The translations under genes were made by a program, and so were the position numbers. The notes beneath the pieces are model-generated. The model was not told the DNA's origin and did not search any database. It saw nothing but the letters and a program-made list of their open reading frames with translations. Below, piece by piece: positions 5,608 through 26,139 of a DNA stretch of 41,805 nt. The stretch spans positions 1 to 41,805 of the forward strand of contig JANNEA010000188.1 of assembly GCA_031388175.1 (NCBI GenBank), read 5' to 3'. How positions within the stretch are numbered: the stretch's first letter is position 1; each line of letters opens with the position of its first letter. This DNA comes from Gammaproteobacteria bacterium. GTDB lineage: Bacteria; Pseudomonadota; Gammaproteobacteria; Natronospirales; JANNEA01.

Positions 5608-5634
5608 CGGGCGATGGGTCCAGCAACAGGCCGG

Positions 5635-6372: not shown

Positions 6373-6533
6373 GCAGCACCATCCGTGGTTCGAAGAAGCA
6401 TCTGATCGAAAGCATCTGTCTGAAAGAGTTGCGTCGGTGATGGGGCGTCCTTGCCACATCAGTCCATTGAACGATCACCGAACGCATCCATCCCTGCCGC
6501 CGTCCACCTCCGGGCTTCCCTGCCCACGTATCC

Positions 6534-7214: not shown

Positions 7215-7220
7215 GGCTTG

Positions 7221-7254
7221 CTGTACCTATATCCAGTACTGATGATTTATACAG
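7221..7254 (-). promoter_or_regulatory. Two tandem SOS boxes upstream of lexA
   Basis: Minus strand CTGTATAAATCATCAG (7239-7254) and CTGGATATAGGTACAG (7221-7236), both matching CTG-N10-CAG. Confidence 0.88.
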
Positions 7255-9904: not shown

Positions 9905-10028
9905 GGTGACCTCCTTGTCACGACGACGGTCTGAACCTACCTGCAGGCAGCGGTCGACCGCAAGGCCCTACTTCCGAAAGAGGGTACTGGATGAATCAGC
10001 AGGCTCTGGCCGCGATGACAGCCCGTGG

Positions 10029-11555: not shown

Positions 11556-11583
11556 CGGCCCAGTCTACAGCCGGTCGACGGCC

Positions 11584-12267
11584 TCAGGCCCGCAGGATCC
11601 CGCCCCAACGACCGAGCGACAGCAGGGCCATCGCGGCACCGGCGACGTAGGTGAAGGCCGCCGCGCGCAGGATGCTGCGCGCTGCCGGGTAGTCCGCGGA
11701 TTTGAGGTCGCCGCCGGCCACCAGCAGCGGCAGCGCCTTGCCGAACGAGGCGTCGAGCTCGACCGGCAGGGTCGCGACATGGACCACGACCGCGAGCAGA
11801 AAGCCGAGCGCGCCGACGCCGGCCGCGACCAGCAGCACCATGGGCGAGCGCGCCACCAACGCCAGCAGCGGTGCAGCGATGAACAGCACGATGCCGGCAC
11901 GCTGCGCGACCAGCGCCAGTTTGGCGAGCTCGATGCGGAAGCCGAAGCCGACCTCTTGCGCCGCGTGCTGCATCGCGTGGCCGACCTCGTGGGCCGCGAC
12001 CACCACCGCGGTCAGCGACCGCGATTGCATGCGCTCGGGTGCCAGCCGCACCGCCTGTGCCAGCGGATCGTAGTGATCGCCCTCCGGACCGGCCTGCTCG
12101 ACCTTCACTGCCGGCAGACCGACGCGATCGAGGAAGCGGCGGGCCGCTTGTGCGCCGCTGATGCCGTAGGTCTGGTCGCGGCCGTGGCGCGCGAGCACGC
12201 GCCGCACCCACAGGCCGGGCAACCCGGCGGCCAGCAACAACAGGAGCAGGAACAGAGCCGCGCGCAT
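11584..12267 (-). CDS. Neutral zinc metallopeptidase (YugP/Zn_peptidase_2-like), membrane
   Basis: DHYDP, AAHEVGHAMQH, TLPVELDAS, AAAFTYVA. Confidence 0.9.
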   Translation of the reverse strand: MRAALFLLLLLLAAGLPGLWVRRVLARHGRDQTYGISGAQAARRFLDRVGLPAVKVEQAGPEGDHYDPLAQAVRLAPERMQSRSLTAVVVAAHEVGHAMQHAAQEVGFGFRIELAKLALVAQRAGIVLFIAAPLLALVARSPMVLLVAAGVGALGFLLAVVVHVATLPVELDASFGKALPLLVAGGDLKSADYPAARSILRAAAFTYVAGAAMALLSLGRWGGILRA

Positions 12268-12270
12268 CGC

Positions 12271-13536
12271 TCAGCGCCAGAGCTGGATCGCGTCGCGGAA
12301 CCGGGCAGCCGAGAAGCGGTTCTCGTCCGCGGTCGCGGCGTAAAGCGCATCGAGTGCGACGGTGCGCTTGGCGCAGGACAGGGTCGCCGCGTCGTTGCAC
12401 AGCAAGGCCAGGCCCAGCACCACCTGCTCGGCCAGCGCGTAGTCGGTCACGCCGCTCTGCAGCCCGAGGTCACGCAGCGCGCGCTCGAGCGCGATCACCT
12501 GCGTCGGCGTGACCGGCGCCACAGTGAAACGCGCGGTGCCGCGCTCGATGCGTTCAGCCAACGCTGCCGCAACCGCGCCAGCCTTGCGCCGATTTGCCTG
12601 ACTCGCGGCGTGCAGCTCGACGATGCCGTTGAGCAGCGCGCCACCTTCGCCAGGCTCGAGCGCACCGAACAGCGCGCGCGTCATCACCAGCGCCGAGTCG
12701 TCGATGCGCACGCGTCCCGGCGCGAGCAGCGTGAGCTCAGGCCTGGCGCGCGGCCGGTGGTCGTTCATCGGGTGATGGCAGGCCTGGCAGTCGAAGCTCG
12801 AGAGCTCCGGGAACGGCGCATCGCTCTCGGCGTCAGTCGCGAGGATGTCGAGCATGCGCACCGCTGCGGCCGCCTGGCCGATGAGCCAGTTGTTCACCGG
12901 TGACGTGATCGTCTTGCGCCTGGCGTAGGCCTCGTCCGGACGGTGGTGGTAGGGCTCGAGCACCATGAAGGTGTCGATCTCGAAGCTCAGGCGCGGATGC
13001 CCCGCCGCCATCATCGCGTGCGTCGCACGCCGGCTGTCATCGCCGCGATGGCAGTCGAGGCAGCGCTCCACGCGTTGGCGCGGGTCCACCATGTCGGCCA
13101 TGCCGGCGGCCAGGTTCGCCGCATGTGCCCGACCCGGCTGGGCATGGCTCTCGATCCAGCGGCTCGCGCCGCCATGGCAGGCCTCGCAGCCCACGCCATC
13201 GCTCAGCTGGAAGGTCGGGCCACGCTGCTCGGACGAAACGTTGTCGGTGTGGCAGTCGAGGCAGACCTTGGCCGTGGACGCGTCGGCCAAGCCCATCACC
13301 AGTGCCATCGCCTTCGCCTTGTCGCCAGCGAGCGTCTCGAAGGCCTTGGCGTGACGGTCGCGCGTGCTCCAGACCACATACTCGTTGAGCGGCACCGCCG
13401 GCGTGGGGTTCGCCACCACCGCGCCGTGGCAGACGCTGTTGGCGCAGCTGCCGACGCCGAGGTGGCGATCGACGGCCCCCGTCGCGCCGCGCGGAAGCGC
13501 GGCGAGCACCAGCACCAGGATCGTTGCGCGCATCAT
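12271..13536 (-). CDS. Periplasmic multiheme cytochrome c (c554-like N-terminus)
   Basis: Signal peptide; CANSVCH (CX4CH), CLDCH, CEACH, CLDCH, CQACH; ATGA overlap with the upstream gene. Confidence 0.88.
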   Translation of the reverse strand: MMRATILVLVLAALPRGATGAVDRHLGVGSCANSVCHGAVVANPTPAVPLNEYVVWSTRDRHAKAFETLAGDKAKAMALVMGLADASTAKVCLDCHTDNVSSEQRGPTFQLSDGVGCEACHGGASRWIESHAQPGRAHAANLAAGMADMVDPRQRVERCLDCHRGDDSRRATHAMMAAGHPRLSFEIDTFMVLEPYHHRPDEAYARRKTITSPVNNWLIGQAAAAVRMLDILATDAESDAPFPELSSFDCQACHHPMNDHRPRARPELTLLAPGRVRIDDSALVMTRALFGALEPGEGGALLNGIVELHAASQANRRKAGAVAAALAERIERGTARFTVAPVTPTQVIALERALRDLGLQSGVTDYALAEQVVLGLALLCNDAATLSCAKRTVALDALYAATADENRFSAARFRDAIQLWR

Positions 13537-16500
13537 TTGCCGCCGCCGGCGCTGCGTGCGCCCTTCGCCGGTGCTGGAGCGTCGTCGGTGAACCATGGCT
13601 TCATCATGCGATCGAGGTAGATGCGCCTCAACTCATCGCCGCGCAACGGCCGCGCGCCCAGGCGGCCGAACAGCGCGATCTGGTTGCCGGACTCATCCGC
13701 GCCGCGGTCGCGCTCGAGGCCCTCGGACAAGGCCAGCGCCGGATAGCGCGTCTTGCGCCAGGCGATGAGCTTAGGCGCAGGCGTGGGGCTGAAACCGTAG
13801 AAGTTGGGTTGCGTGTCGGGCGCCGTGAGCTGCAGCACCTTCAGGCCCGCCGCGCCGTCGGCGACGTAGGCGAAGGACGAGGCGTTGGTCGCGCCGAGCA
13901 CCACGTCGCGCACGTCCTTGAGCGCGCCGTCGGCGGTGTAGAGCGTGAGCAGCCGCATCTTGCGTGGCGTCTCGATATCCACGATCGCGAGTCCATCGGG
14001 TCCATCGGCGACGTAGGCGTAAGTGCGTGCAAGGTAGATGCGCCCAGCGTGGGCGAGCGGCACGCGCGCCTCGGGCACGAGCTGCGGGTTGCGCGGGTCG
14101 GTCACATCCACCAACGCCAGGCCCTTTGCGTCCGTCACCCACAGATAGCGGAACTGCAACGCGCTCGCGCGCGCATCGTCCATCGGCAGCGTCGCCACCA
14201 GCTTCGGCTGCAGCGGGTCATCGATGTCGAGCACCACCAGGCCGGCAGCGGCGGTGATGTAGAGGAAGCGGCCGCCGATCGTCAGATGCCGCGCACCCTT
14301 GAGCACGCCGCCCTCGTTCCAGGTCAGCGCGCGCTCGAGGACGTTGTTGCGGGGCTCGCCGTCGGCGAAAGCGTCGATGTCGACCAGGATGAGGCCTTCC
14401 TGGGCATCGGTGATGAACGCGTAGCTGAACAGCGGATGGAAGGGCTGCTCCTGGTTCGCGACGCGCATCAGGTCGCCCTGGTTGCGTGGCGGATGGATCG
14501 GCTGGGTGCTCGGCAGCACCACGCAGGTCGCCTCGCGGCTCTTGAGCCTGGAGTCGTGACCGATGCCGCTGAACGGCGCGGTGATGATCTTCTGCGCCAC
14601 GCCCTTGTTGTCGATCGAGGCCACGTCATAGACGCGCATCCCGCCCGCGCCTTCGGCCGCGAACAGGTACTCGCCTCTGAGCTGCAGGCAGCGCACCGGG
14701 CCGCCGGCGCCGTGGTCCTGCTCCACCTGCAGTTCCCGGCCGCGCGTCGCGTGCGCCGCGTACCAGTCGGGATAGGCGTAGCGATGCAGGTAGCTGCCGA
14801 TGACCGCCTGCGGTTCGTCCCATTCGGTCACCGCCACCGCCTGCAGGCCACCGTCGCCGCCGACCCAGGCGTGGCGGCCGATGAAGTTGATGTAGTTGGT
14901 CCCCTGCAGCAGCAGCTGGGCCATGATCGCGTTGTTGTCGTCAGCGCGTGACAGATGGCAGTCGCTGCAGGTCTTGGTCTCGGTCTTGCGCTCGGTGTGC
15001 GGGTAATGGGTGTTCAGCACCTGCGAGGAATAGCCGGCGGCCGAGATCGGTGCCTGCTGCACGTAGATCCGCTCGCGGTTGGCGTTGGTGGACGACAGCA
15101 CCAGCGCCGACGACGAGCGCACTGGCGCGACCTTGTTGCCCTGCGGCGTGCCGTTGATGCCGAGCATGAACATGTCGTCGCGCGCGACCTGCGGGTTGTA
15201 AGTGGCGAAATTGCGCGACTCGCCGCCCTCGTAATGGTGGCGCGCGGTCTTCCAGTTCGCCTCGATCGGCAAGTGGCAGCCGCCGCAACTGGTGGTCCAC
15301 GAGGTGTGGCAGGTGTAGCACTCGAGCTTCTCGTCGCTGTGGGCAAGCTCGGTCGGCGCCACGCCCTGGCCCCAGCCCTGCTTCGCGGTGTCCGTGCTCA
15401 TCAGCTTGGCGCGCGCGGCCTTGGCGTTGTAGCCGGGGCTCCTGGGGTCCACCGAGTCTTTCACCAGGCTCATGGTCCACTCGCGGCCGGGGTCCAGCAT
15501 CGAGCGCTGCACCAGCTTCGCGCCCAGCCACTCGAAGCGCCGGCGGCCATCCGGGTTGCGCAGCAGCGCGAGGTCGGTGCCACCCGCAGTCGCCGCGGTG
15601 CCGGAGCTGCGCAGCGTGGGGTACTTGTCCACGGTGCCGTGGCAGTCCTTGCAGTCGATCTCGACCGCGGCCGCGACCTCGCCGATGAGGTGGCCGTCGC
15701 CATGCGCGTCCAGTGAGAAATGGCAGTCCACGCAATGCATGCCGACGTCGACATGCACCGACGACAGGTGCACCGCCTTCTCGAACTTCTTCGGATCGTC
15801 GGCCGAGACCTTGGCGCCCTTGGCGTCGAGCAGCTCGCCCTTGCGGTCGCGCTTGAACACGCCGCGGAAGTTCCAGCCGTGGCCATGGTAGTCGGCGAAC
15901 TGTGTGTCGACCAACGTCGGGTTCATGTCGGCGACCGCCGACAGGAACTTGAGCTCACCCCACAGGCCGCGCGCCGCAGCCGCTTCAGGGTTGCGGTCGT
16001 TGATGCGGCGGACAGTGGCGTCGTCGGGGTAGCGCTGCTCGGCCGGCCACATCTTCGGCGCGTCGGACTCGTAGTCCCACATCGTGTAGCCGAGGAAAGT
16101 GTTCATGAACATGTTCGGCTGATGCATGTGGCAGATCATGCATTGGCTGGTCGGGATGGCGCGGGTGAAGGCGTGCTGCAACGGGTGGCCCGGCTGGTCG
16201 CGGGGGATCGTCGGATCGGACTGCGTGCTCAAGCCGCCGTGACCGCTCGCGGCGTAGGGCCCGGAGTGGCGCGGGTCGCGATCGTTCGCGTAGACCACAT
16301 GGCAGCCCGCGCAGCCCGAGGACCGGTAGTCGCCGGGCTGGTCGTTGGTGCCGAGGAACCACATGTTCGGGTCGTTGAGCCGGGTCTTGTGGATGTTCAG
16401 CACCGGGATCGCGACGCGCGCGCCGGTGCCCGGGCCGCGGATGCTCTGCTTGAGGTCCGGTCTTCCGGGTTCGTCGAGCCGCTGCAGCTGACCGCTCGAG

Positions 16501-17246
16501 TTCGGCAGGCCGGTCTCGGGAAAGCTGCTGCTGATCACGCGCCCGCCGCGTTCGAACACGCGGAAGATGTCGCCCGGCGGCACGGTCTCCCAGGCCGGCA
16601 GCGGCGCGAGCGAGGGCAACGCGCCGCGCGCGCGTGCCGCATCATCGAGCGGCAAGGCGGGCGTGAGCGCCGCGGGTTCGCCGTCGCGTGTATACGCCTC
16701 GCCGAGGATGTAGTTCTTGTACGGCAAGATGCCGTTCGCGTACGACGCACCACCCCAGAGCATCGCGCTGGTGGCCATCAAGCTGCGCTCGGCCTTGACG
16801 ATCGTGTCAAGGTGGCAGCTGCCACAGGCCTCGCGCGCCACGCGGTAATCCGAGGGGTTCATGAAGCGGATGAACTCCGGGCTCTCCTGGTTGATCGCCG
16901 CGTAGCTGCGCTCCGGGTTCGCGCCGCGGGTGGCGGCCCAGACCCCGGGATCGCGCGGCCACACGTGCGCCGCCTTGAGCGCCGCGTCGTAGCCCGGCGT
17001 ACCGGCCGCGGTGCCCGCGGCGCGCACCACGCCAGCGTCGCCGCCGTGGCAATCGGTACAGCCGAGTTGCACCGCCGGGTTGCGGTGCATGGACGGCGCG
17101 TCGGTCGGTGCATGGCAACTCACGCAGCCCACGCTCTTGGCCGCGGCCTCGGCCGGCATCTGGCTGTGCGGTGCGGGCGGCGCCGCCGCGCCTGCGCCGA
17201 CGGCGGTCGTCGCACAGAGGATCGCGATGAGGAGCGCGGCGCGCAT
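13533..17246 (-). CDS. Large decaheme cytochrome c with C-terminal LVIVD-repeat beta-propeller
   Basis: Signal peptide; 10 CXXCH; repeats such as GLVVLDIDDPLQP, GLALVDVTDPRNP and YAYVADGPDGLAIVD. Confidence 0.88.
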   Translation of the reverse strand: MRAALLIAILCATTAVGAGAAAPPAPHSQMPAEAAAKSVGCVSCHAPTDAPSMHRNPAVQLGCTDCHGGDAGVVRAAGTAAGTPGYDAALKAAHVWPRDPGVWAATRGANPERSYAAINQESPEFIRFMNPSDYRVAREACGSCHLDTIVKAERSLMATSAMLWGGASYANGILPYKNYILGEAYTRDGEPAALTPALPLDDAARARGALPSLAPLPAWETVPPGDIFRVFERGGRVISSSFPETGLPNSSGQLQRLDEPGRPDLKQSIRGPGTGARVAIPVLNIHKTRLNDPNMWFLGTNDQPGDYRSSGCAGCHVVYANDRDPRHSGPYAASGHGGLSTQSDPTIPRDQPGHPLQHAFTRAIPTSQCMICHMHQPNMFMNTFLGYTMWDYESDAPKMWPAEQRYPDDATVRRINDRNPEAAAARGLWGELKFLSAVADMNPTLVDTQFADYHGHGWNFRGVFKRDRKGELLDAKGAKVSADDPKKFEKAVHLSSVHVDVGMHCVDCHFSLDAHGDGHLIGEVAAAVEIDCKDCHGTVDKYPTLRSSGTAATAGGTDLALLRNPDGRRRFEWLGAKLVQRSMLDPGREWTMSLVKDSVDPRSPGYNAKAARAKLMSTDTAKQGWGQGVAPTELAHSDEKLECYTCHTSWTTSCGGCHLPIEANWKTARHHYEGGESRNFATYNPQVARDDMFMLGINGTPQGNKVAPVRSSSALVLSSTNANRERIYVQQAPISAAGYSSQVLNTHYPHTERKTETKTCSDCHLSRADDNNAIMAQLLLQGTNYINFIGRHAWVGGDGGLQAVAVTEWDEPQAVIGSYLHRYAYPDWYAAHATRGRELQVEQDHGAGGPVRCLQLRGEYLFAAEGAGGMRVYDVASIDNKGVAQKIITAPFSGIGHDSRLKSREATCVVLPSTQPIHPPRNQGDLMRVANQEQPFHPLFSYAFITDAQEGLILVDIDAFADGEPRNNVLERALTWNEGGVLKGARHLTIGGRFLYITAAAGLVVLDIDDPLQPKLVATLPMDDARASALQFRYLWVTDAKGLALVDVTDPRNPQLVPEARVPLAHAGRIYLARTYAYVADGPDGLAIVDIETPRKMRLLTLYTADGALKDVRDVVLGATNASSFAYVADGAAGLKVLQLTAPDTQPNFYGFSPTPAPKLIAWRKTRYPALALSEGLERDRGADESGNQIALFGRLGARPLRGDELRRIYLDRMMKPWFTDDAPAPAKGARSAGGGK

Positions 17247-17248
17247 GG

Positions 17249-19027
17249 TCAGTAGGTGAAGATCAGGTTGGCAAGCACGGAGAACGGGGTCTCATCCTCG
17301 TACAGCGCGGTGTAGCCGTCCCCCGGCAGCAGCGCCGCGGCGCTCAGGCGCAGCACGATGTTCTGGCTCATGAACGGCCGGTAGATCATCGCCACGGAGA
17401 CGTCCTCGCCGATGTGATCAGGGATGTTCGCCTGCGCCCGCGCCACCTCGAGCGTCGCGGTATCGTCGAACCATAGCGCGGACAGGTTCGCCGTGACGCG
17501 GAGTTTCGGCGTGAGGTCGAGATCGACGCCACCGCCGATCATCTTCAGGCCCGGGTTGGTGAAGTTCGACTGGCCGTGGTCCTTCGACGAACGCAGGTCG
17601 TTGAGGATGCCGTTGCGGCTGGACAGCGTGACCTTGCCGCCGCCGATTAGCGGCACCGCCTGCCGCACCCAGAAACTGGTGTCGGCGCCGGCCAGCAGCG
17701 GGTTCTCGAACACCGCGTCGTAGCCCTCGGCCTTGCCGTCGAAGGGATCGCCGTCGCCGGTCGCGTAGGCGCCGTGCAGGCGGTAGCGCACCCAGTCCGA
17801 GTCGTAGCTGAGCTCACCGGCGAGGAAGCCGGCCTGGATCTGCGACGGCGTGCCGGTGAATATCCCGGCAGTCTCGTCGCCGACGGCGACGTACGCGGAC
17901 ATGGTCAGGCCGAAGCGCCCGGCGCGGCCATCGCCGTTGTAACCGAGGTAGGTCACGTCGTAATCGCGCGGCCGCTGTTGTCCGAGCGCGACCGGCCGCT
18001 GCAGGAAGCCGTTCTCGTCGTAGAACGGATCGTCCGACTCGCGGTTCATGTCATGCAGCACGATGAATTGCGAGGTGAATCCCGGCGCGAGCGAATCCTG
18101 CCAGAAGAGGCTGGCGACGATCAGGTCCTCGTCACGCGGTTTGGCGCCGACGTCGTTGAGCCCGCTGTTGGTGTCCTTCTCGAGGCGGCGGAACCACGCA
18201 AGGTTGTACTGGACGCGGTTGTTGGCGCGCGTGCCGAACAGGCGGATACCGAACGGCGAGTCCTGGAACAGGAAGCCGCGGAAGTCAGCGTTGAACGGCT
18301 GGATGCCGACGCGCAGCGAATCGAAGTCGAAGCGCTCCGAGACGTTGCGCAGGTGCCAGTCGAAGAACAGCCCCTGCACGCCGAAGTGCTGGTCGCGACG
18401 GTAGGTGCCGGCGGCCGGGTCGGCGTTGAGCAGGCCGACCTCCTCCACCTCGGCGGTGTTGAGGTTGAGCACTGGGATGAAGCGGAACTCGAAGTCCGGC
18501 GGACGGAAGGTGGTGTCGCCCTCGAGCAAGGCGAACTCGAAGATCAGCGTGGTGCTGGTGACCAGCTGCTCGGCCGCGCCGAACACATCGTTCGCACCGG
18601 GCCCCGAACTGCTCGCGCCGCCGACCGGCGTTGGCAGCCGGCGCGGCTCGATCACCACGTCGGCAGTCGCGCCGAGCACCACGAACCACTCGTCGTGCAC
18701 CGGCCGGTCGCCTTTGAGCGTGTTCTGGTTGTAGGGGTCGTACCAGCGCTCGTTCACGCCGATCGACTCGACGATGCGCCAGCGGTCGGGCACCGGCATG
18801 GGCAGCGCGTCCTGCACCGGCGGACGCGGCGTGGGCGCGCACGGCGAAGGCACAGTCGGTGCTTTCGGCGCAGTCGGGCGACCCGGGCGACGGCGCGCGT
18901 CCTCGCTCTCGACCGCCACCGGCGCGCAGGTCGGATCGTTCGGCGGTGACGGAATAGGCGCCGGCGCCGCGGCCGCAAGCCCAGGCAGCAGCAGCATCAA
19001 CAGCAGTGCGCTGCGTTCACTTGCCAT
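17249..19027 (-). CDS. Outer-membrane beta-barrel (porin-like) protein
   Basis: Signal peptide, Pro-rich linker, alternating amphipathic strands, C-terminal aromatic residue (ANLIFTY). Confidence 0.75.
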   Translation of the reverse strand: MASERSALLLMLLLPGLAAAAPAPIPSPPNDPTCAPVAVESEDARRRPGRPTAPKAPTVPSPCAPTPRPPVQDALPMPVPDRWRIVESIGVNERWYDPYNQNTLKGDRPVHDEWFVVLGATADVVIEPRRLPTPVGGASSSGPGANDVFGAAEQLVTSTTLIFEFALLEGDTTFRPPDFEFRFIPVLNLNTAEVEEVGLLNADPAAGTYRRDQHFGVQGLFFDWHLRNVSERFDFDSLRVGIQPFNADFRGFLFQDSPFGIRLFGTRANNRVQYNLAWFRRLEKDTNSGLNDVGAKPRDEDLIVASLFWQDSLAPGFTSQFIVLHDMNRESDDPFYDENGFLQRPVALGQQRPRDYDVTYLGYNGDGRAGRFGLTMSAYVAVGDETAGIFTGTPSQIQAGFLAGELSYDSDWVRYRLHGAYATGDGDPFDGKAEGYDAVFENPLLAGADTSFWVRQAVPLIGGGKVTLSSRNGILNDLRSSKDHGQSNFTNPGLKMIGGGVDLDLTPKLRVTANLSALWFDDTATLEVARAQANIPDHIGEDVSVAMIYRPFMSQNIVLRLSAAALLPGDGYTALYEDETPFSVLANLIFTY

Positions 19028-20990
19028 CGCAGACCTGCTGTTCGTTGCTGGCGAGGAACGGGGTCTGCGGGCATTGCACGAAGCGCAGCCGCACGCCTTG
19101 CGGCGTCAAGTTGTCGCTGCGAATCGCCGTCGGTGCGTTGCCGAAGGTGCCGGGCGCGAGCGCCGCGGCGGTGTGCAAACCAAGGAAGGCGACCATGTCG
19201 TCCTGGTCCACGCCATCACCCGACACGCCGATCGCGCCGACCAGTTGGCCCGCGCGGTAGATCGGCACACCACCAGGGAAGACCTGCAGGCCATCGGCGA
19301 GCTGCGTCAGCCCGCCGCATTGGCGTGGTGTGTCGGGCGGGACGCCGGCCCCGATCACATGCACCACGTGCTGGATGATCTCGTTGTAGCTGAGGTCGAG
19401 CTGCAGGCCGGTGGCGAACGGGCTCCAGGTGGCGATCGGACGGCTCAGCGGCCCCGCGGCACCCGGGATGCCATCGGGATAATAAGGACGCGCTAGGTTG
19501 CCGATCGCGCGCGCGCTGTAGGCCACCGAACCATCGAGCCCGGTCGGCTGCGCGGTGAAGGATTGGAACGCGGTCACGTAGTCCGCGATCTGCACAGTGT
19601 CGGCGACCAACGTGCCGTCCGGCGTGAGGTGCTGCGCGTCGGGCGCGCCGTTCAGCAGCGTGGCGGCGTCGCTCCGTGCGAACAGCGCGGCGCTGCGTGC
19701 CTTCTGCACTGCGACGTCCACGCCGAACACGGGCGCATCACCGTTGCGCACCAGACCCAACAGGTTCCCCGCGCTGTCCACCACCGCGATGCTCACCTGT
19801 GCCCGGGTGCCGAGCGGCAGCCGGATCTGCGCGCGGGCGCGGGCGGCGATGCCCAACGCTTCGCTGAGGATTGAATCCACTTCCGGCGCAGTCAGCGCGA
19901 TCAGCGGCTCGCTGCCTGCGGCCGGCGGGTAGCGCGGTGCATCCACCGCATCGACCAGCACGAAGGCATCGAGACCGGGGAAGGTCACGGCATCGGCGCG
20001 CACGCCGGAGGCCGCAGTGCCGTAGGTGGTGCCGGCATGCACCAGACCGTCGGCGTAGCCAGCGACCACCTGCAGCGCGCCGTCGGCCGGTGTCAGGGTG
20101 GCGAACGCCGGCGCGGTGGCGGGGTCGCTGGCGAAGTCCGCGGCGCGCGCGTCGGTGAAACGCAGCGCGCGGCCATCCGCAGTGATGCGGTCGGCAACCC
20201 GCGCATCGGGCGCCGCGAACCCCGAGCTCGCGGCCAAGGCGACCTGCTCGTCGAGCGACTGATCGCGGTCGGTGACATCGAGGTCGAGACCGTAGACCGC
20301 GTCGGCAATCACGCCCACGCCGCCGACCACGACCCCACTCTTATAGAGGGGGAAGCCGCCGGGGTCCGCAGCCAGGCCGAGCGGCGAGCGCTTCGGTCCG
20401 ACCGTGCCGTCGACGTCGCGTGCCGACACATCGGAGCACGGCAGCGAGCTGAACTGCACGCCGAACAGCGGACCGGCCAGCGCGAAGGATTCCTGCGGGT
20501 TGAAGTGCTGCTGCACGATCTGCGAGGCGGTGCGCGTGCTGAACGCGTTGCCCTCGCTCGAGAGATAGGCTGCGGTGACTGCCTTGGCGATCGCGGCCAG
20601 CGCGTCGGGCACGATCTGCAGGCTGTCGAGGCCGGCATTCACCCCACGCCCGGAATCGATGGTGACCTGGGTGGCAGCGCCGCTCATGCGGTAGACCGCG
20701 AGCACGTTGCCCACGCGATCGACCACCGCGATGCTGCCATTGGCGCTGCGTGCATTCGCCTCGTGCACCGCCTGGGCGACGATCGTCTCGACCTCGGCGA
20801 CGCTGAGCGCCTGGCCGGTGAGGAAACAGCTGCCACTGCAGCTCGGCTGCGTGCTCGGCGGCGCGCCGCTGGCGAGCGGCTGGCCGTCGCCGCACGACAC
20901 GAGGACCACGATGGTGCACACGGACGCGCTCAACGACGCAAGACAGCGCGCCCTCGTCCGCCGCGAGCCACGCGCGCTCGTTACCTCCAA
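19017..20990 (-). CDS. GlcG/HbpS-like heme-binding lipoprotein with repeated domains
   Basis: Lipobox LVSC; IAVVDRVGNVL and IAVVDSAGNLL; GGFPLYK..VVGGVGV; GGVPIYR..VGAIGVSGDGVDQDD. TTG start is uncertain. Confidence 0.8.
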   Translation of the reverse strand: MEVTSARGSRRTRARCLASLSASVCTIVVLVSCGDGQPLASGAPPSTQPSCSGSCFLTGQALSVAEVETIVAQAVHEANARSANGSIAVVDRVGNVLAVYRMSGAATQVTIDSGRGVNAGLDSLQIVPDALAAIAKAVTAAYLSSEGNAFSTRTASQIVQQHFNPQESFALAGPLFGVQFSSLPCSDVSARDVDGTVGPKRSPLGLAADPGGFPLYKSGVVVGGVGVIADAVYGLDLDVTDRDQSLDEQVALAASSGFAAPDARVADRITADGRALRFTDARAADFASDPATAPAFATLTPADGALQVVAGYADGLVHAGTTYGTAASGVRADAVTFPGLDAFVLVDAVDAPRYPPAAGSEPLIALTAPEVDSILSEALGIAARARAQIRLPLGTRAQVSIAVVDSAGNLLGLVRNGDAPVFGVDVAVQKARSAALFARSDAATLLNGAPDAQHLTPDGTLVADTVQIADYVTAFQSFTAQPTGLDGSVAYSARAIGNLARPYYPDGIPGAAGPLSRPIATWSPFATGLQLDLSYNEIIQHVVHVIGAGVPPDTPRQCGGLTQLADGLQVFPGGVPIYRAGQLVGAIGVSGDGVDQDDMVAFLGLHTAAALAPGTFGNAPTAIRSDNLTPQGVRLRFVQCPQTPFLASNEQQVCDGK

Positions 20991-21077
20991 CGCATCTCTC
21001 CCCCCGAAATGACCGATGCGCCCGAGCGTAGGCTAAACTGCCCAAAGACGCACACGCAGCCCTGCCATCGGAACCCA

Positions 21078-23483
21078 ATGGCCGACGCCAAGCACGCCGA
21101 CTTCAAGATCGCGATCGTCGGCGCCGGACCCGGTGGCCTTTCGGCCGCAGCGCAAGCCGCGGCCGCCGGCATCCCGCACGTGCTGCTCGAGAGCACGCCG
21201 GCCCTCGCCAACACGATCCAGCGCTACCAGAAGGGCAAGCACGTGATGGCGGAGCCGTCGCGCCTGCCGCTGCGCAGCCCCTTGCCGTTCGAGGTCGGCA
21301 CGCGTGAGCGCGTGCTCGAGCGCTGGGCCGAGGGCGCCAAGAGCTCGAAGATGAACCTGCGCTACAAGGCCGAGGTCGCGGCGATCACCGGCGCCATCGG
21401 CGCCTTCCGTCTCGAGCTCAAGGGCAAGGAGACGATCACCGCCGAACGCGTGGTGCTCGCCATCGGCCTGCAGGGCAACCCGCGCAAGCTCGGCGTCCCC
21501 GGCGAAGAGCCGCGCACCGTCCACTACACGCTCGACGACCCCGCCGACCACAGCGGCGAGACCATCATCATCGTTGGTGCTGGCGACGCCGCGATCGAGA
21601 ACGCGTTGGCGCTGGCCGAGGCCAACAGCGTGGTGCTGGTGAATCGCAAGGACGAGTTCTCCCGCGCCAAGGAGGGCAACCTCACTGCGATCCTGCGCGC
21701 GATCGAGAAGCGCCAGATCGAATGCTTCTACAACGCCAGCGTGGCCAAGATCGTCAGCGGCCGGAACAGCAGCGGCAAGCCCTGCATCGTCACGCTCAAC
21801 ACCGCGCGCGGCGCCGCCGAGCTGCCCACCGATCTCATCATCGCCCGCCTCGGCGCGGTCGCGCCGCGGGCCTTCGTCGAGGCCTGCGGCATCCGCTTCC
21901 CCAACGACGAGCCGGATGCGATCCCGCTGCTCAAGCACAATTACGAGTCGAACGTGCCGGGGATCTACGTGATCGGCGCGCTCGGCGGCTATCCGCTGAT
22001 CAAGCAGTCGATGAACCAGGGCTACGAGGTGGTCGAGCACATCCGCGGCAACCGGGTGAAGCCGGCCGATCACGACCTGCTGGCCGAGAAGTTCGCGGTG
22101 CTCGGCGCCAACACCGAGGTCAACATCACGCTCGCCAACCTGCAGCGCGCGGTGCCGTTGTTCTCGCACGTGAATCCGCTGCAGTTCCGCGAGCTGATGC
22201 TCGAGAGCACGGTGCACCGGCCGGCCGCCGGCAGCGTGGTGTTCGAGCACAACGACTACACCAACACGCTGTACGCGATCTTCAGTGGCACGGTCGAGGT
22301 CAGCGCTGGGCCCAAGCGCATCCCGATCAAGCGCGGCAGCTTCTTCGGCGAGATGGGCCTGCTCAGCGGCCGGCGCCGCACTGCGACCGTGCTGGCCGGC
22401 GAGGATTGCGTGCTGGTCGAGGTGCCGCGCCGCACCATGAACAAGCTGATCGCGTCGAACACCCAGGTGAAGCGCCTGATCGACGAGGCCTTCATCGCCC
22501 GCGCGGTGCAGTCGCGGTTCGCGCCGAACACGCCCGACGCGGTGCTCAAGCAGGTGGTGGCCGGGGCCCAGCTGCACACCTACCCCGCCGGCGCGGTGGT
22601 GTTCAGCGAGGGCGACGACGGCGATCGCCTGCATCTGGTGCGCTCCGGCTCGCTCACCGTGTCGCGCCAGAGCCGCAACCGCGAGGTGGTGGTGTCGTAC
22701 GTGCCGGCCGGCAAGTACGTCGGCGAGATGGGCCTGCTCGGCGGCACCAAGCGCAGCGCGACGGTGCGGGCCGCGGTCGCGACCGAGACGGTCAGCATCG
22801 ATGCCGCCGGTTTCGCGCTGCTGATGCAGCACGAGCCGGGCCTGCGCGAGCAGATGCAGGCCGAGATGCGCCAGCGCCTGGCGGCCAACGCGCGGATGGA
22901 GGCCCAGCCCGACACCGGCGACATCCTCTCGTTCCTGATGGCGCAGGGGCTCGGCGAGGCCACTGACGTGCTGCTGATCGACGAATCGCTCTGCGTCCGC
23001 TGCGACAACTGCGAGACCGCCTGTGCCGAGACCCATCAGGGCACGTCGCGCCTCGACCGCGAGGCCGGCCCGACCTTCGCCAACGTGCACGTGCCGACCT
23101 CCTGCCGGCACTGCGAGCACCCGCACTGCATGAAGGAGTGCCCGCCGGACGCGATCCATCGCTCGCCCAACGGCGAGATCTTCATCGCCGACAACTGCAT
23201 CGGCTGCGGCAACTGCGAGCGCAACTGTCCCTACGGCGTGATCCAGATGGCCAGCGTCCCGGCGCCGCAGCCGCCCATCTGGCAGTGGCTGCTGTTCGGC
23301 CGCGGTCCGGGGCCCGGCGAGCACAAGGACCCGAACGCCGACCCGCTGGCGACGAAGAAGGCGGTGAAGTGCGACATGTGCAGCGGGCTAAAGGGTGGCC
23401 CGGCCTGCGTGCGCGCCTGCCCGACCGGCGCCGCGATCCGCATCCGACCCGAGCGCTTCCAGCAGCTCGGCGACGCCGACTGA
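21078..23483 (+). CDS. FAD/NAD(P)H oxidoreductase (TrxB-like) fused to two cNMP-binding domains and a 4x[4Fe-4S] DmsB/NrfC-like domain
   Basis: GAGPGG, GAGDAA; FFGEMGLLSGRRRTATV, YVGEMGLLGGTKRSATV; CVRCDNCETAC, CRHCEHPHCMKECP, CIGCGNCERNCP, CDMC..PACVRACP. Confidence 0.9.
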   Translation: MADAKHADFKIAIVGAGPGGLSAAAQAAAAGIPHVLLESTPALANTIQRYQKGKHVMAEPSRLPLRSPLPFEVGTRERVLERWAEGAKSSKMNLRYKAEVAAITGAIGAFRLELKGKETITAERVVLAIGLQGNPRKLGVPGEEPRTVHYTLDDPADHSGETIIIVGAGDAAIENALALAEANSVVLVNRKDEFSRAKEGNLTAILRAIEKRQIECFYNASVAKIVSGRNSSGKPCIVTLNTARGAAELPTDLIIARLGAVAPRAFVEACGIRFPNDEPDAIPLLKHNYESNVPGIYVIGALGGYPLIKQSMNQGYEVVEHIRGNRVKPADHDLLAEKFAVLGANTEVNITLANLQRAVPLFSHVNPLQFRELMLESTVHRPAAGSVVFEHNDYTNTLYAIFSGTVEVSAGPKRIPIKRGSFFGEMGLLSGRRRTATVLAGEDCVLVEVPRRTMNKLIASNTQVKRLIDEAFIARAVQSRFAPNTPDAVLKQVVAGAQLHTYPAGAVVFSEGDDGDRLHLVRSGSLTVSRQSRNREVVVSYVPAGKYVGEMGLLGGTKRSATVRAAVATETVSIDAAGFALLMQHEPGLREQMQAEMRQRLAANARMEAQPDTGDILSFLMAQGLGEATDVLLIDESLCVRCDNCETACAETHQGTSRLDREAGPTFANVHVPTSCRHCEHPHCMKECPPDAIHRSPNGEIFIADNCIGCGNCERNCPYGVIQMASVPAPQPPIWQWLLFGRGPGPGEHKDPNADPLATKKAVKCDMCSGLKGGPACVRACPTGAAIRIRPERFQQLGDAD

Positions 23484-24370
23484 TGCAGCGCCTGCACTTC
23501 TCCTTCCTCGAGTACCGCCGCAGCCGCTTCCTGTGGGTCGCGGTGCTGATCACCGTCGCGGCGCTGATCGCCTATGCGCGCGACGACGCCGGCGAGCCGC
23601 CGAGCGGCGGCACCACGCTCGGCTACGCGCTCGGCATCCTCGGCGCGCTGCTGATCCTCTGGCTGCTCGCCTATGGCCTGCGCCGTCGCAGCTACCACGC
23701 GAGCTGGACCACGGCGCAGGGCTGGCTCTCGGCCCACGTCTACCTCGGCCTCGCGTTGGTGGTCATCGTCACGCTGCACACCGGGTTCCAGTTCGGCTGG
23801 AACGTGCACACGTTCGCCTACGCGCTGCTGTTGCTGGTGGTGGCGAGCGGCTGCTGGGGCGTGTGGGCCTACCTGCAGCTGCCGCGACTCATCACCGACG
23901 CGCGCGGCGGCCTGACCCGCGCCGACATGGCGCAGCAGATCCTCGAGCTCGACCGCCGTGCGCTCACGCTTGCGCGCGCGGTGTCGATGGACGTGCACCG
24001 CTGGGTCTCGAGCGCGATCGAAGGCGCGCGCACCTCGGGCGGCGCCTGGGCCCAGCTGCGCGCCAAGGACATGTCGACCATGGTGATCGATCGCAACGGC
24101 ACCGCGGCGAGCGTGCCGAACGTGGACCAGTACACGCTCACCGAGCTGCTCGCCGACCTGACCTCGCGCGCCAGCGACGCCAAGCTCGCCAGCCAGCTGC
24201 AGGACCTGCTGGCGCTGGTCAGCGCGAAGGTCACGCTGATGCAGCGCATGCGCCGCGACCTCCGGCTGCAGGGCCTGGTCGAGATGTGGCTGCTGTTCCA
24301 TGTACCGCTGTCGCTGGCGCTGCTGGCAGCGCTGATCGCCCACGTGTTCGCCGTCCTCTACTACTGGTAG
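23483..24370 (+). CDS. Polytopic membrane protein, ferric-reductase-like, probable heme-b ligands
   Basis: TGATG coupling with the upstream gene; transmembrane helices with His in WLSAHVYLG, TLHTG, WLLFHVPLS and IAHV. Confidence 0.75.
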   Translation: MQRLHFSFLEYRRSRFLWVAVLITVAALIAYARDDAGEPPSGGTTLGYALGILGALLILWLLAYGLRRRSYHASWTTAQGWLSAHVYLGLALVVIVTLHTGFQFGWNVHTFAYALLLLVVASGCWGVWAYLQLPRLITDARGGLTRADMAQQILELDRRALTLARAVSMDVHRWVSSAIEGARTSGGAWAQLRAKDMSTMVIDRNGTAASVPNVDQYTLTELLADLTSRASDAKLASQLQDLLALVSAKVTLMQRMRRDLRLQGLVEMWLLFHVPLSLALLAALIAHVFAVLYYW

Positions 24371-24376
24371 CCCGGG

Positions 24377-26074
24377 ATGCGCGCACGCATACGCCACGTC
24401 ACGCGGGCCGCAGGCGGCGGGCTCGAACGTCGCGACATCGACACCACGCGCGACATCATCAGCATCGGCCGCGCCACCGACCAGACGATCTACCTCGCCG
24501 ACAAGCGGGTGGCGCTCAACCACGCCACCATCACCGCCCAGGCCGATGGACGGTTCCGCATCGAATCGCTCGCGTTCGGCGGCGTGAGCGTCAACGGCAA
24601 GATCAAGCGCGCCGCGGTGCTCGACGTCGGCGACCGCATCAGCATCGGCGGCTATGAGCTCACGATCGTGGGTGCGCCGGCCGGCTGGGACCTGGTGCTC
24701 ACCGTCGAGCAGGTCGACGTGGTCCAGATCTCGACCGGCAAGGAGAACGCCGGCTTGAGCACCACGGCCTGGAGCCGCCGCCGCCTGTCCTGGATCCTGT
24801 TCACCGGCACCCTGCTGTTCACGCTGGCGCTGCCGCTGCTGCAGCCGGGCAGCACGGGCCACGACGCGACCACGCGCATCGGGATGCCGAGCACCGCGGC
24901 CTGGTCGCCGGGGCCGCTGTTCCCGGCGCATTCGCTGCTGGCCAAGGACTGCGCTGCCTGCCACACCGAGCCGTTCGTGGCCGTCGCCGACGCCGCCTGC
25001 CTCGCCTGCCACGCGCAGGTCCCGGCCCACGTGCCCAAAGGCCATCCGACCACGCGCGAGCTCAGCGACGCGCGCTGCACCGATTGCCATCAGGAGCACA
25101 AGGAGCCGCGCCAGCTGGTGGATGCGCGCCAGCGCATCTGCGCCGAATGCCACGCAGACCTGAGCGCGCACCCCGGCATCAGCACCGCGCTGCGCGATGC
25201 CGCTGACTTCGGCAACGCACATCCCGCGTTCGCACTCACGCAGTGGGTACCGGACGGCCATGGCGAGGCGACGAAATGGCGCAGCGTGCGCGATCCGGAC
25301 GACACGGCCACGCCACGCGAGCGCTCGAACCTGAAGTTCACCCACAAGCTCCACCTTGCACCGACCGGGATCAAGGGACCGGATGGCAAGCCGAAGATCC
25401 TCGCCTGCGCCGACTGCCACCGCGGCGATCCCGCCGGTCGCCTGATGTTGCCGGTGCGGATGGAATCCGATTGTCGCGAGTGCCACAAACTGGTGTTCGA
25501 CGCCAACGCGCCAACCCGCGAGGTGCCGCATGGCTCGCCGGCACTGGTGCAGATGACGCTCGAGGAGTTCTACTCGCGCCAGTTCCTGAACGAGGCGATG
25601 GATGCGGTCGCCGGCGGCAAGGCCGCGCGCGACGCGCGCCGTCCGGGCCGCGCGATCGAGCTCACCCCTGCGCAGCGCGCACAGGCTGCTGACCGCGCGC
25701 ATCGTCAAGCGCAGACGGTAGCAGGCGACCTGTTCGAGCGTCGCGCCTGCGCGAACTGCCACGAGATCATCAAGACCGATGGCGCCGACGCCGACGGCCC
25801 GCGCTACGACGTGGAGCCAGTGCGGCTCACCACGCGCTGGATGCCGAAGGCGGCGTTCTCACACCTGACGCATCGTGACGCCGAGTGCGGCCTGTGCCAT
25901 CGCGCCGCCGGATCGGAGGTCGCACAGGACGTGCTGCTGCCGACGATCGAGGACTGCCGCGGCTGCCACGCCGGCGACACCGGCCTGGGTCGCAAGGGCC
26001 AGCGCATCGTCAGCGGTTGCATGATGTGCCACGGCTTCCACGTCACCGGCACCGGCGCGATGGCTGACCAGTAG
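24377..26074 (+). CDS. FHA domain - TM - decaheme cytochrome c3-like protein
   Basis: ISIGRA..VALNHA..GVSVNG..LDVGDRISIG (FHA); TM WILFTGTLLFTLALPL; 10 CXXCH. Confidence 0.88.
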   Translation: MRARIRHVTRAAGGGLERRDIDTTRDIISIGRATDQTIYLADKRVALNHATITAQADGRFRIESLAFGGVSVNGKIKRAAVLDVGDRISIGGYELTIVGAPAGWDLVLTVEQVDVVQISTGKENAGLSTTAWSRRRLSWILFTGTLLFTLALPLLQPGSTGHDATTRIGMPSTAAWSPGPLFPAHSLLAKDCAACHTEPFVAVADAACLACHAQVPAHVPKGHPTTRELSDARCTDCHQEHKEPRQLVDARQRICAECHADLSAHPGISTALRDAADFGNAHPAFALTQWVPDGHGEATKWRSVRDPDDTATPRERSNLKFTHKLHLAPTGIKGPDGKPKILACADCHRGDPAGRLMLPVRMESDCRECHKLVFDANAPTREVPHGSPALVQMTLEEFYSRQFLNEAMDAVAGGKAARDARRPGRAIELTPAQRAQAADRAHRQAQTVAGDLFERRACANCHEIIKTDGADADGPRYDVEPVRLTTRWMPKAAFSHLTHRDAECGLCHRAAGSEVAQDVLLPTIEDCRGCHAGDTGLGRKGQRIVSGCMMCHGFHVTGTGAMADQ

Positions 26075-26084
26075 CGTGGTCCGG

Positions 26085-26116
26085 AGAAAAGAGAAGGCCG
26101 GCTTGCGCCGGCCTTC
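26085..26116 (-). terminator. Rho-independent terminator (for the ialB-like gene; possibly bidirectional)
   Basis: GAAGGCCGGC-TTGC-GCCGGCCTTC stem (26093-26116), followed by TCTTTTCT on the minus strand. Confidence 0.8.
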
Positions 26117-26139
26117 ACATCGATCCCACTAGGCGTGGA

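Follow-up and report, generated by a model that had tools for sequence, protein, structure and literature searches.

In NADPH oxidases and ferric reductases, as in the Fre-MsrQ system, electrons from cytoplasmic NAD(P)H and flavin reach the outer side of the membrane through a stacked pair of bis-His b haems, with no quinone involved. In the MtrCAB system, the MtrB barrel (26 strands in the solved structure) sheathes a decahaem cytochrome, and MtrC is placed on the Shewanella cell surface by type II secretion. Of modules related to the locus treated here, only two are in print, both of unknown function. The ptdABCDEFG operon of marine Alphaproteobacteria (UBA11136) is read by its authors as a putative porin-cytochrome complex and is reported by them to be transcribed in ocean oxygen-deficient zones by nod-transcribing bacteria (10.1101/2023.11.21.568154). 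The second, a trio of genes in Ferrigenium straubiae, encodes an FHA-nonahaem cytochrome, a protein with five transmembrane (TM) helices and a [4Fe-4S] protein; its authors regard the combination of FHA and multihaem domains as previously unreported (10.64898/2026.01.22.701106). Here, a cluster of seven genes is described that encodes a flavo-cNMP-FeS protein (cNMP, cyclic nucleotide), a membrane protein, an FHA-decahaem cytochrome, an HbpS-like protein, a beta-barrel, a decahaem cytochrome with a C-terminal beta-propeller (decahaem-propeller) and a c554-like cytochrome; it is located on a 41,805-nt contig of a gammaproteobacterium of the order Natronospirales (JANNEA010000188.1; the whole stretch is referred to as the window). 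The cluster is widespread, highly conserved and uncharacterised, and is akin to transmembrane cytochrome redox complexes and to putative porin-cytochrome clusters.

The gene set probably supplies periplasmic haems with electrons taken from NAD(P)H, a reading that holds for versions with a solute channel as well as for those with an outer-membrane conduit. More specifically, and with a probability of about 0.45, the cluster may constitute a regulated export chain from NAD(P)H to the periplasm, in which the periplasmic decahaem-propeller is the terminal module and the barrel serves as a solute channel. A first-pass annotation of the window, made from the DNA letters alone, had proposed a complete wire to the cell surface and knew of no characterised function; correspondingly, a literature search that covered few subscription journals yielded no characterised function for the cluster, no published account of a decahaem-propeller combined with an HbpS-like protein and an AlgE-like barrel, nothing that links alginate-export barrels with multihaem cytochromes and, for LVIVD repeats together with multihaem cytochromes, only an unrelated LVIVD protein. 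Papers on Methylobacter, MHCscan and the Desulfuromonadia likewise do not mention the cluster.

The inner-membrane module

By open reading frame (ORF), domain and motif checks, all seven genes were recovered at the positions given by the first-pass annotation, together with their domains and a total of 25 c-haem motifs (24 CxxCH and one CxxxxCH; Table 1). The flavo-cNMP-FeS protein consists of a two-dinucleotide flavoprotein domain (residues 1-335), two cNMP domains (approximately 355-610) and a four-cluster ferredoxin domain (approximately 630-795), so that the domains required for the cytoplasmic input proposed at first, from NAD(P)H via FAD to four [4Fe-4S] clusters, are all present. By structure and family matches, the flavin domain resembles thioredoxin reductase (TrxR), YpdA/Bdr and the TrxR-type ferredoxin-NADP reductases; its score with the thioredoxin reductase model TIGR01292 was 67.6 bits against a cut-off of 343. 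In residues 1-620 of 41 sequences neither a conserved cysteine pair nor a redox-active CxxC was found, for which reason, judged by known families, the protein would be an enzyme of the pyridine-nucleotide:FeS type rather than a disulfide reductase. The FeS domain is closest to four-cluster proteins of the HycB/HydN/AegA type, and its 16 cysteines in four ferredoxin-type motifs are invariant across the 41 sequences.

The membrane protein carries His85 and His99 on TM helix 3 and His273 and His287 on TM helix 5, each pair 14 residues apart, and a cytoplasmic insert of approximately 110 residues between TM helices 4 and 5; among 42 sequences His85, His99 and His109 are invariant, while His273 and His287 are conserved to at least 90%. 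Two histidine pairs with a spacing of about 13-14 residues on two helices are the signature of two stacked bis-His b haems, and the protein, whose four histidines had already been pointed out in the first annotation, is accordingly proposed as a predicted two-haem-b transmembrane relay. Its family affiliation is remote: The window protein scored 17.7 bits with PF01292 (cytochrome b561/Ni_hydr_CYTB) against a gathering score of 30.1, weak matches among the 42 membrane proteins were to PF01292 in 39 (best E 2.9e-7), to DUF4405 in nine and to Ferric_reduct (PF01794) in three, and a search of the PDB returned only chance-level OprM matches. The protein is thus remotely related to the quinone-reactive subunits of the cytochrome b561/FdnI type. 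Its family comprises 3662 cluster representatives at E ≤0.001, of which 363 reach E ≤1e-30.

In the FHA-decahaem cytochrome, a cytoplasmic FHA domain (residues 28-91) is followed by a single TM helix (approximately 136-160), preceded by positively charged residues, and by a periplasmic decahaem domain (approximately 185-555). Ten CxxCH motifs and exactly ten further histidines are invariant in 37 sequences, and ten CxxCH motifs were counted in 53 of 54 FHA-decahaems; the protein looks like an all-bis-His wire anchored in the inner membrane, in agreement with the periplasmic haem wire that had been suggested for it.

The three proteins make up a portable module whose periplasmic partners vary. 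The trio stands alone in two loci (L087 and L088), in the first of which (7380-10787, + strand) the flavo-cNMP-FeS and membrane proteins are encoded by a single ORF of 1135 residues; frames of 1120-1146 residues that span both proteins suggest the same fusion in two further genomes (G222 and G082), and a family representative of 1110 residues (P0222) carries the TM part at its end. In a ptd-like locus (L089), the trio of cNMP-FeS, TM and decahaem proteins lies beside a non-homologous FNR-type protein (NAD_binding_1 and Fer2 domains). One module is therefore served by two different NAD(P)H flavoproteins, and since a flavoprotein of one or the other type has been kept, the module is most simply understood as NAD(P)H-driven. 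As a side observation, the fusion gene of L087 is followed by an FHA-multihaem gene with eight CxxCH motifs, with PAS histidine kinase genes as neighbours and no barrel or propeller genes nearby.

The envelope proteins and the MtrCAB cluster of the same genome

The barrel has no Pfam or NCBIfam match at E ≤0.01, including PF13372 (alginate export) and TIGR03509 (MtrB/PioB). Its AlphaFold2 model (mean predicted local distance difference test, pLDDT, 79; predicted template modelling score 0.79) shows approximately 18-20 strands between residues of about 105 and 592, a disordered, Pro-rich stretch of some 80 residues at the N-terminus and an aromatic C-terminus (..IFTY). The best Foldseek match of the model was AlgE (E 9e-18), and VIA-align superimposed it on AlgE with Z 28.7 and a root-mean-square deviation of 2.8 Å over 362 of 410 residues and on OprD/Occ proteins with Z 23-27; by these comparisons of a predicted structure the protein is assigned to the AlgE/OprD class of 18-stranded barrels. 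MtrB was not among the matches listed by either program, which is not taken as an exclusion. The atlas neighbours of the barrel are automatically named as alginate export proteins, PF13372 being present in only 21% of the members of one such cluster. A crude estimate by strand alternation places about 38 polar residues that are conserved to at least 90% (nine Asp, seven Arg, seven Asn and others) on the lumen faces; this pattern could fit a specific channel and, equally, a protein-protein interface.

The decahaem-propeller protein has a plain signal peptide, a haem domain (approximately residues 25-790) and a C-terminal LVIVD beta-propeller (approximately 790-1180). All ten CxxCH motifs are invariant in two alignments (12 and 28 homologues) with a mean column identity of 75%, and 15 histidines outside the motifs are invariant in the 12 homologues. 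In the AlphaFold2 model the propeller reaches a pLDDT of about 90 while the haem domain stays below 50, and for this reason only generic propellers were returned by Foldseek. Searches of the PDB by sequence or profile gave no relatives or chance-level matches, and an atlas search with the haem domain gave only unnamed multihaem clusters. A match of residues 495-665 to Geobacter ExtM (NF040943; 62.5 bits against a cut-off of 800) is, by this sequence comparison, a partial homology of one haem sub-domain only.

The HbpS-like protein comprises two HbpS/GlcG-like domains behind an LVSC lipobox and a CxGxC motif past the anchor. A lipobox is present in most of the gamma- and betaproteobacterial forms listed, plain signal peptides in the alphaproteobacterial ones; the window protein is probably an outer-membrane lipoprotein partner of the barrel. 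The pattern of four CxxCH and one CxxxxCH of the c554-like cytochrome recurs in 47 of 47 homologues; like the constancy of the motifs in both decahaem proteins, this shows that the haem motifs are no chance matches. The score of the c554-like cytochrome with the model of Nitrosomonas cytochrome c554 (NF043010) was 27.8 bits against a cut-off of 400.

An internal control for the curated family models was available on a second contig of the same genome (C132, locus L092, 11557-18291), which holds a true MtrCAB cluster together with a divergent dihaem cytochrome c and a NapC/NirT-type tetrahaem cytochrome (255 bits, below its cut-off); this small sediment genome thus has a second, classical system for extracellular electron transfer. 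While the MtrB of this cluster scored 320.2 bits with TIGR03509 (cut-off 240), its MtrC 542.5 bits with TIGR03507 (OmcA/MtrC; cut-off 209) and its MtrA-like protein 268.9 bits with TIGR03508 (DmsE/MtrA; cut-off 192.2), the window barrel gave no match to the first model, the decahaem-propeller, which has no lipobox, none to the second, and the FHA-decahaem and the c554-like cytochrome reached only 29.5 and 28.2 bits with the third. The outer half of the cluster, which had been likened to the MtrAB type, is better read as an AlgE/OprD-like barrel of about 18 strands and a decahaem protein outside the OmcA/MtrC family.

Conservation, spread and gene order

In a scan with one genome per species, the decahaem-propeller gene was detected in at least 599 species genomes (599 of 600 matched stretches were confirmed as encoding relatives), and 7800 relatives of the protein were found at E ≤0.001 among 8000 scored candidates. 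Two of the 120 relatives listed are 95% and 88% identical to the window protein and the others 65-69%; the named organisms among them belong to the Alpha-, Beta- or Gammaproteobacteria, and the product names read 'hypothetical', 'uncharacterized' or 'LVIVD repeat-containing'.

Gene order was compared in the best 80 loci from these species genomes. In 50 of the 51 loci with at least 9.3 kb of upstream flank, the genes for the TM protein, the FHA-decahaem, the HbpS-like protein and the barrel lie upstream of the decahaem-propeller gene on the same strand, and the co-occurrence of the genes elsewhere, the lack of which the first-pass annotation had named as a refutation, is thereby established. 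The flavo-FeS gene was present in 47 of the 51 (upstream in 36, downstream in 11); of the four loci in which it was missed, three are on contigs that break off just past the cluster. The c554-like gene is an accessory member, as it is adjacent downstream in only 47 of the 69 loci with enough flank, was located elsewhere in four and was not found in 18. The two divergent operons described for the window did not prove to be the typical layout: In all 80 other loci both arms are encoded on a single strand, and the divergent arrangement is peculiar to this window. In a genome of the same order (L090), the six core genes are collinear and only the c554-like gene is divergent.

Sequence identity to the window proteins across the loci is highest for the decahaem-propeller (61-70%), followed by the barrel (48-59%), the flavo-FeS protein (46-63%), the TM protein (35-46%) and the FHA-decahaem (30-46%). 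The decahaem-propeller gene is patchy within the order to which the window belongs, five of 41 genomes having a match at E ≤0.001 (four strong, and one weak and partial in G020, E 3.3e-6). Wherever a full decahaem-propeller gene was present in a sample of 401 genomes, the TM gene was present as well (8/8). A FastTree phylogeny of the window protein and 63 full-length decahaem-propeller proteins (17 of the 80 loci were omitted on account of short or interrupted frames) groups by class, with six label changes against 25 in shuffles, and places the window among the gammaproteobacterial rows with a support of 97. Cultured holders of the cluster are Limnobacter alexandrii, Parahaliea maris, Sinimarinibacterium flocculans and Sediminihaliea albiluteola; the organism of the window was detected in freshwater-sediment metagenomes.

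Several loci deviate in detail. Two rows labelled Acidobacteriota (L053 and L065) group together inside the betaproteobacterial clade (support 100), and the cluster proteins of these and of two further loci with non-proteobacterial labels (L082, Flavobacterium; L035, Patescibacteria) nest in proteobacterial clades, which is either lateral transfer or a matter of mis-binned contigs of metagenome-assembled genomes. The decahaem-propeller gene of one locus (L003/L090; G039:C4, 14630-18184) contains one in-frame TGA that could represent a sequencing error, a pseudogene or selenocysteine. About 1.9 kb are inserted between the FHA-decahaem and HbpS-like genes of L086 (13333-15222; G281), a genome that was missed by the decahaem-propeller search because its contig ends right after the barrel gene. 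Directly upstream of the cluster, L062 (3-3093, - strand) and 8-10 other betaproteobacterial loci carry CcmC-like, CcmA/B and CcmH/CycH genes; these cytochrome c maturation neighbours were seen in Limnobacter and related Burkholderiales.

Signatures of regulation

The cNMP domains (PF00027, 120.6 bits in two stretches) follow each other in tandem order as in the regulatory subunits of PKA and PKG. An intact phosphate-binding cassette has the form Gly-Glu ... Arg-Ser/Thr-Ala, and by the conservation of the corresponding residues both cassettes of the protein family are intact (first cassette: Gly425, Glu426 and Arg435 in 41/41 sequences each; second cassette: Gly550 41/41, Glu551 37/41, Arg560 41/41). 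Given these cassettes and the location of the domains, with the flavin on one side and the FeS clusters on the other, control by cyclic nucleotides appears plausible. Matches to four class III cyclases and eight protein kinases were found in the genome of the window.

The FHA domain as such is well supported (PF00498, 33.7 bits against a cut-off of 20.7), with Gly31 conserved in 47/47, Arg32 in 41/47 and His49 in 37/47 aligned sequences; the phospho-Thr sensing ascribed to it at first is less so. The canonical phospho-Thr pocket uses a conserved Arg, a Ser that contacts the phospho-Thr, and a His or Asn, and the position of this Ser is occupied by Ala in 31, by Pro in seven and by Ser in three of the 47 sequences. 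Control by phospho-Thr is doubtful in view of these residues, and weak matches of the FHA-decahaem to Yop-YscD_cpl and GltG were noted; the domain may instead serve for docking, in the manner of such modules in components of secretion systems.

A link to Ser/Thr signalling exists in some lineages, for the neighbourhood of the cluster rather than for the FHA-decahaem itself. Just downstream of the cluster, PP2C genes were present in 13 and double-FHA genes in 11 of the 80 loci (10 and nine of the 50 loci with at least 5 kb of flank), and Ser/Thr kinase genes lie near the cluster in four of the 80; these loci belong mainly to Halieaceae, Alteromonadaceae and Nevskiaceae. Examples are L041 (14874-17062 and 20085-21632), L066 (16886-22880) and 10 further loci.

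Proposed electron transfer and alternative explanations

In the export chain favoured here, NAD(P)H would reduce the FAD of the TrxR/FNR-like domain, and the electrons would run through the four [4Fe-4S] clusters of the same polypeptide, cross the membrane via the two bis-His b haems of the five-helix protein and pass on to the FHA-decahaem, which is anchored in the membrane and whose ten bis-His haems would form the periplasmic wire. The terminal module would lie on the periplasmic side of the outer membrane and would consist of the decahaem-propeller as terminal oxidoreductase and the tandem HbpS-like (lipo)protein, joined in most lineages by the c554-like pentahaem cytochrome, with the AlgE/OprD-like barrel as a channel for substrate or product instead of a sheath round a cytochrome. 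Since the export would spend both NAD(P)H and membrane potential, a gating of the flow by the cNMP domains between flavin and FeS clusters is proposed, and the FHA domain would act as a docking or regulatory module. Transfer from NAD(P)H (about −320 mV) to bis-His c haems would be energetically downhill, with the membrane potential as an additional driving force. No NrfD, NapC or other known quinol-oxidising partner was found in the set by the Pfam/NCBIfam scan, and a bypass of the quinones by such a gene set is plausible.

For the outer half, the evidence from the cluster favours a periplasmic terminal protein with a dedicated channel over an Mtr-like sheath with a surface cytochrome. Within the set, conservation is highest for the decahaem-propeller and far lower for the FHA-decahaem, which is more in keeping with an enzyme than with a loose wire. 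Furthermore, GspD was above its cut-off in four of 10 cluster-holding genomes and GspL in one of five tested, and four cluster-holding genomes of 100% completeness (G072, G180, G228 and G411) lacked GspL as well as any GspD match above the cut-off, which makes it unlikely that the Mtr route is used for surface display in these species. The surface end of the trans-envelope wire that had been put forward at first is weakened by this result, while its inner-membrane half stands.

Several points speak against the preferred assignment. Domains, conserved ligands, synteny, the gene fusion and the fold class of the barrel were computed; from these sequences and models we infer cofactor binding, activity, location, direction of flow, gating and substrate. 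No catalytic site was identified in the decahaem-propeller, the haem domain of which has a pLDDT below 50, and all ten of its haems could be bis-His ligated as in a pure wire, because there are 15 invariant histidines outside the motifs. Barrels of approximately 18-20 strands have been proposed for porin-cytochromes of the Geobacter type, so that the size of the barrel is compatible with a conduit. The genomes lacking type II secretion are few independent cases, since they come from two families (f57 and f59), and other export routes exist. The remote kin of the membrane protein include quinone-reactive subunits. As the freshwater-sediment organism also has MtrCAB, an extracellular redox lifestyle is plausible. 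Finally, LVIVD repeats are described as cell-surface associated (10.1101/2022.05.06.490989).

The LVIVD repeats and the sediment habitat would suit a full trans-envelope wire, in which the barrel holds part of a cytochrome (the tip of the FHA-decahaem, the c554-like protein or the N-terminus of the decahaem-propeller) and a surface-exposed decahaem-propeller reduces minerals, humics or electrodes. This explanation draws on identical inner-membrane evidence, on the constant clustering of barrel, lipoprotein and two to three multihaem cytochromes, as in porin-cytochrome systems, and on the conserved lumen residues if these form a protein-protein interface; the porin-cytochrome reading of the ptd operon by its authors points the same way (10.1101/2023.11.21.568154). 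It has nevertheless to accommodate a barrel that is AlgE/OprD-like and outside MtrB/PioB by sequence model, a decahaem-propeller outside OmcA/MtrC with a plain signal peptide, four complete holders lacking GspD and GspL as specified above, and an organism that already possesses canonical MtrCAB and a NapC/NirT-type cytochrome; moreover, most named holders belong to aerobic heterotrophic taxa that are not known for mineral respiration. The full wire is hence considered unlikely. More doubtful still is its generalisation to a third architectural class of trans-envelope conduit, a cNMP-gated and quinone-independent 'NADPH-oxidase-plus-wire' that would lead from NAD(P)H over FeS clusters, two b haems and at least twenty c haems, would run through or alongside the AlgE-type barrel to a surface decahaem-propeller and would be common in aerobic Proteobacteria; if true, ordinary aerobes would dump reducing power on extracellular acceptors on signal.

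An inward or quinone-coupled flow, in which Fe(II), reduced sulfur or a nitrogen compound is oxidised in the periplasm and the electrons are delivered to quinone or to the FeS-flavoprotein, would agree with the remote kinship of the membrane protein to cytochrome b561/FdnI-type subunits (the 39 of 42 weak PF01292 matches) and with the Hmc and Tmc complexes of sulfate reducers, which join periplasmic cytochromes c to cytoplasmic FeS proteins. A comparable direction, from outer-membrane Fe(II) oxidases to quinone, is proposed by the Ferrigenium authors (10.64898/2026.01.22.701106). Such a flow would, however, have to carry electrons towards the negatively charged side of the membrane and, with NAD(P)+ as acceptor, up to about −320 mV, for which a donor of very low potential or an input of energy would be required; the NAD(P)H-type flavoprotein partner, kept in two non-homologous forms, is more simply a donor, and the set is devoid of known quinol-oxidising partners such as NrfD or NapC. 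Inward flow is thus improbable. Least probable is a sensor, in which envelope cytochromes report their redox state via the haem b protein to the cNMP and FHA proteins for onward signalling: Two cNMP domains and an FHA domain built into redox proteins, the PP2C, double-FHA and kinase genes that flank some loci and the role of Streptomyces HbpS as a redox-sensing accessory protein would fit, but 25 c-haems, two proposed b-haems, four FeS clusters and a flavin would make a very expensive sensor, the conserved set has no output domain (DNA-binding, kinase or cyclase), and the NAD(P)H-flavin domain would have no obvious role. Iron or haem acquisition as the function was set aside, as the system itself would need about 27 haems and 16 FeS irons.

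Gene coordinates and neighbourhood

Table 1. Positions of the cluster genes and associated features in the window
Feature	Position	Strand	Characteristics
c554-like pentahaem cytochrome c	12271..13596	-	PF13435 48.2 bits, residues 71-142; signal peptide
Decahaem-propeller protein, 1237 residues	13533..17246	-	Ten CxxCH and LVIVD repeat (PF08309, 63.4 bits)
AlgE/OprD-type outer-membrane beta-barrel, 592 residues	17249..19027	-	Assigned by predicted structure; no family match
Tandem HbpS/GlcG-like (DUF336) protein, 657 residues	19017..20990	-	PF03928 85.5 bits against a cut-off of 25, three stretches
Divergent intergenic region between the arms, 84 bp	20991..21074		Found only in the layout of the window
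Flavo-cNMP-FeS protein, 802 residues, predicted cytoplasmic	21075..23483	+	Pyr_redox_2/3, then two cNMP_binding, then Fer4 domains
Inner-membrane protein, 295 residues, five TM helices	23483..24370	+	Two His pairs
FHA-decahaem, 565 residues	24377..26074	+	FHA 33.7 bits; Cytochrom_c3_2 48.6 bits; ten CxxCH
GC-rich hairpin of ten pairs, likely terminator	26093..26116		Consensus scan only

Inside each arm, the genes are joined by overlaps (ATGA, TGATG) or by gaps of 2-6 nt: The HbpS-like gene overlaps the start codon of the barrel gene, and the start of the membrane-protein gene overlaps the stop of the flavo-cNMP-FeS gene (TGATG). For the c554-like gene, the ATG at 13536 is the most likely true start, in overlap with the decahaem-propeller stop codon (ATGA), and the flavo-cNMP-FeS gene begins at MADAKH, the long ORF from 20037 being an upstream extension. 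The hairpin is located between the end of the right arm and a convergent IalB-like gene. No sigma-70-like sites were found in 9900-26400, including the divergent region, by a scan that is uninformative at the G+C content of the window (about 70%). Contigs of 230-886 nt from RNA libraries of two studies (runs X11, X19 and X18) match all six core genes with 95-99% likeness and give a weak hint of transcription, as carry-over of DNA is possible and the contigs show neither strand nor level. The genome comprises 2.08 Mb in 195 contigs and is 95% complete by marker genes.

Beyond the c554-like gene, a Zn_peptidase_2 gene, starting 3 nt past its stop, and a gene for an MscS channel with a C-terminal cNMP-binding domain follow (together 10029-12267, - strand), both of which are probably co-transcribed with the left arm. 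The MscS protein is a third cNMP-binding protein close to the cluster, which is curious; it was rejected as a conserved neighbour, as the tblastn matches in other loci hit the flavo-FeS gene instead, by way of its cNMP domains. The Zn-peptidase gene was found in none of the 80 other loci and is outside the conserved set. Upstream of the cluster region, the window further contains genes for a PAS-GGDEF-EAL protein (7247-9967, - strand) and a cassette of LexA, an ImuB-like protein (IMS family) and a DnaE2-like error-prone polymerase (822-7226, - strand).

Significance and comparison with known systems

If the reading favoured here is true, the cluster represents a widespread, second-messenger-gated route that brings NAD(P)H electrons into the envelope and leaves the quinone pool aside, present in no fewer than 599 species genomes and some 7800 protein clusters. 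It would bear on the redox balance of aerobes in sediments, biofilms and oxygen-deficient water, on the role of 'orphan' multihaem cytochromes in organisms that do not reduce metals, and on the way in which the ptd operon and the Ferrigenium trio work. Because the inner-membrane trio is a portable module, one biochemical characterisation would explain several gene clusters, and direct testing is feasible because cultured holders exist.

The window holds the core of the ptd type, namely a cNMP-FeS protein, a membrane protein and a periplasmic decahaem that by sequence are homologous to the trio of the ptd-like locus L089 (TM E 7.7e-10, cNMP-FeS E 1.5e-38, decahaem E 3.5e-10). As described, the ptd operon shares with the window a cNMP-binding FeS protein, a 'ferric reductase-like' membrane protein, a periplasmic decahaem, an NAD(P)-flavoprotein, a c554-type multihaem cytochrome and a porin (10.1101/2023.11.21.568154). 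It differs in its separate FAD/NAD(P) oxidoreductase PtdC and tetrahaem PtdD, whereas the flavoprotein of the window is fused and of the TrxR type; PtdA, a pentahaem with a beta-sandwich, has no counterpart among the genes of the window cluster, and the decahaem-propeller and tandem HbpS-like proteins are absent from the ptd description. L089 itself (G245:C145, 2-8498) encodes an unannotated ORF of 481 residues, the FNR-type protein, a c554-like tetrahaem, a protein with three cNMP domains and Fer4, the TM protein and a decahaem of 709 residues, in which no FHA domain was detected by Pfam, in contrast to the decahaem of the window.

By its description, the Ferrigenium trio resembles the inner-membrane module: its multihaem cytochrome has one helix and an FHA domain in the cytosol, its membrane protein has five helices and no known motifs, and its FeS protein is cytosolic. 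It differs in having nine haems instead of ten, in its neighbours (nirK and an SHP-like gene), and in the absence of adjoining barrel, HbpS-like or propeller-decahaem genes; the authors also propose an inward flow to quinone (10.64898/2026.01.22.701106). The N-oxide-related contexts of both the ptd operon and the Ferrigenium trio are, by analogy, a lead on the substrate but not evidence.

To the NADPH oxidases and ferric reductases the predicted chain is similar in being fed by an NAD(P)H-flavin domain and in the two bis-His b haems proposed; it is distinguished by five helices in place of six (with PF01794 matches that are weak and confined to three of 42 proteins), by four FeS clusters inserted between flavin and haem b and by a decahaem wire as acceptor in place of O2, Fe(III) or MsrP. 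The barrel corresponds to AlgE and OprD/Occ in fold class and size, and it is encoded beside a lipoprotein gene as AlgE is next to the lipoprotein AlgK; in contrast to these proteins, with which it has 9-15% sequence identity, it has cytochrome partners, a Pro-rich extension and no alginate genes nearby. With MtrCAB of the Shewanella type the cluster shares the combination of a barrel, decahaem cytochromes and a lipoprotein, the barrel being AlgE-like and outside MtrB/PioB and neither decahaem belonging to DmsE/MtrA or OmcA/MtrC. The two systems finally differ at their input: MtrCAB is supplied by a quinol dehydrogenase of the NapC/NirT type, whereas the cluster of the window would be supplied by an NAD(P)H-dependent flavo-FeS protein together with haem b.

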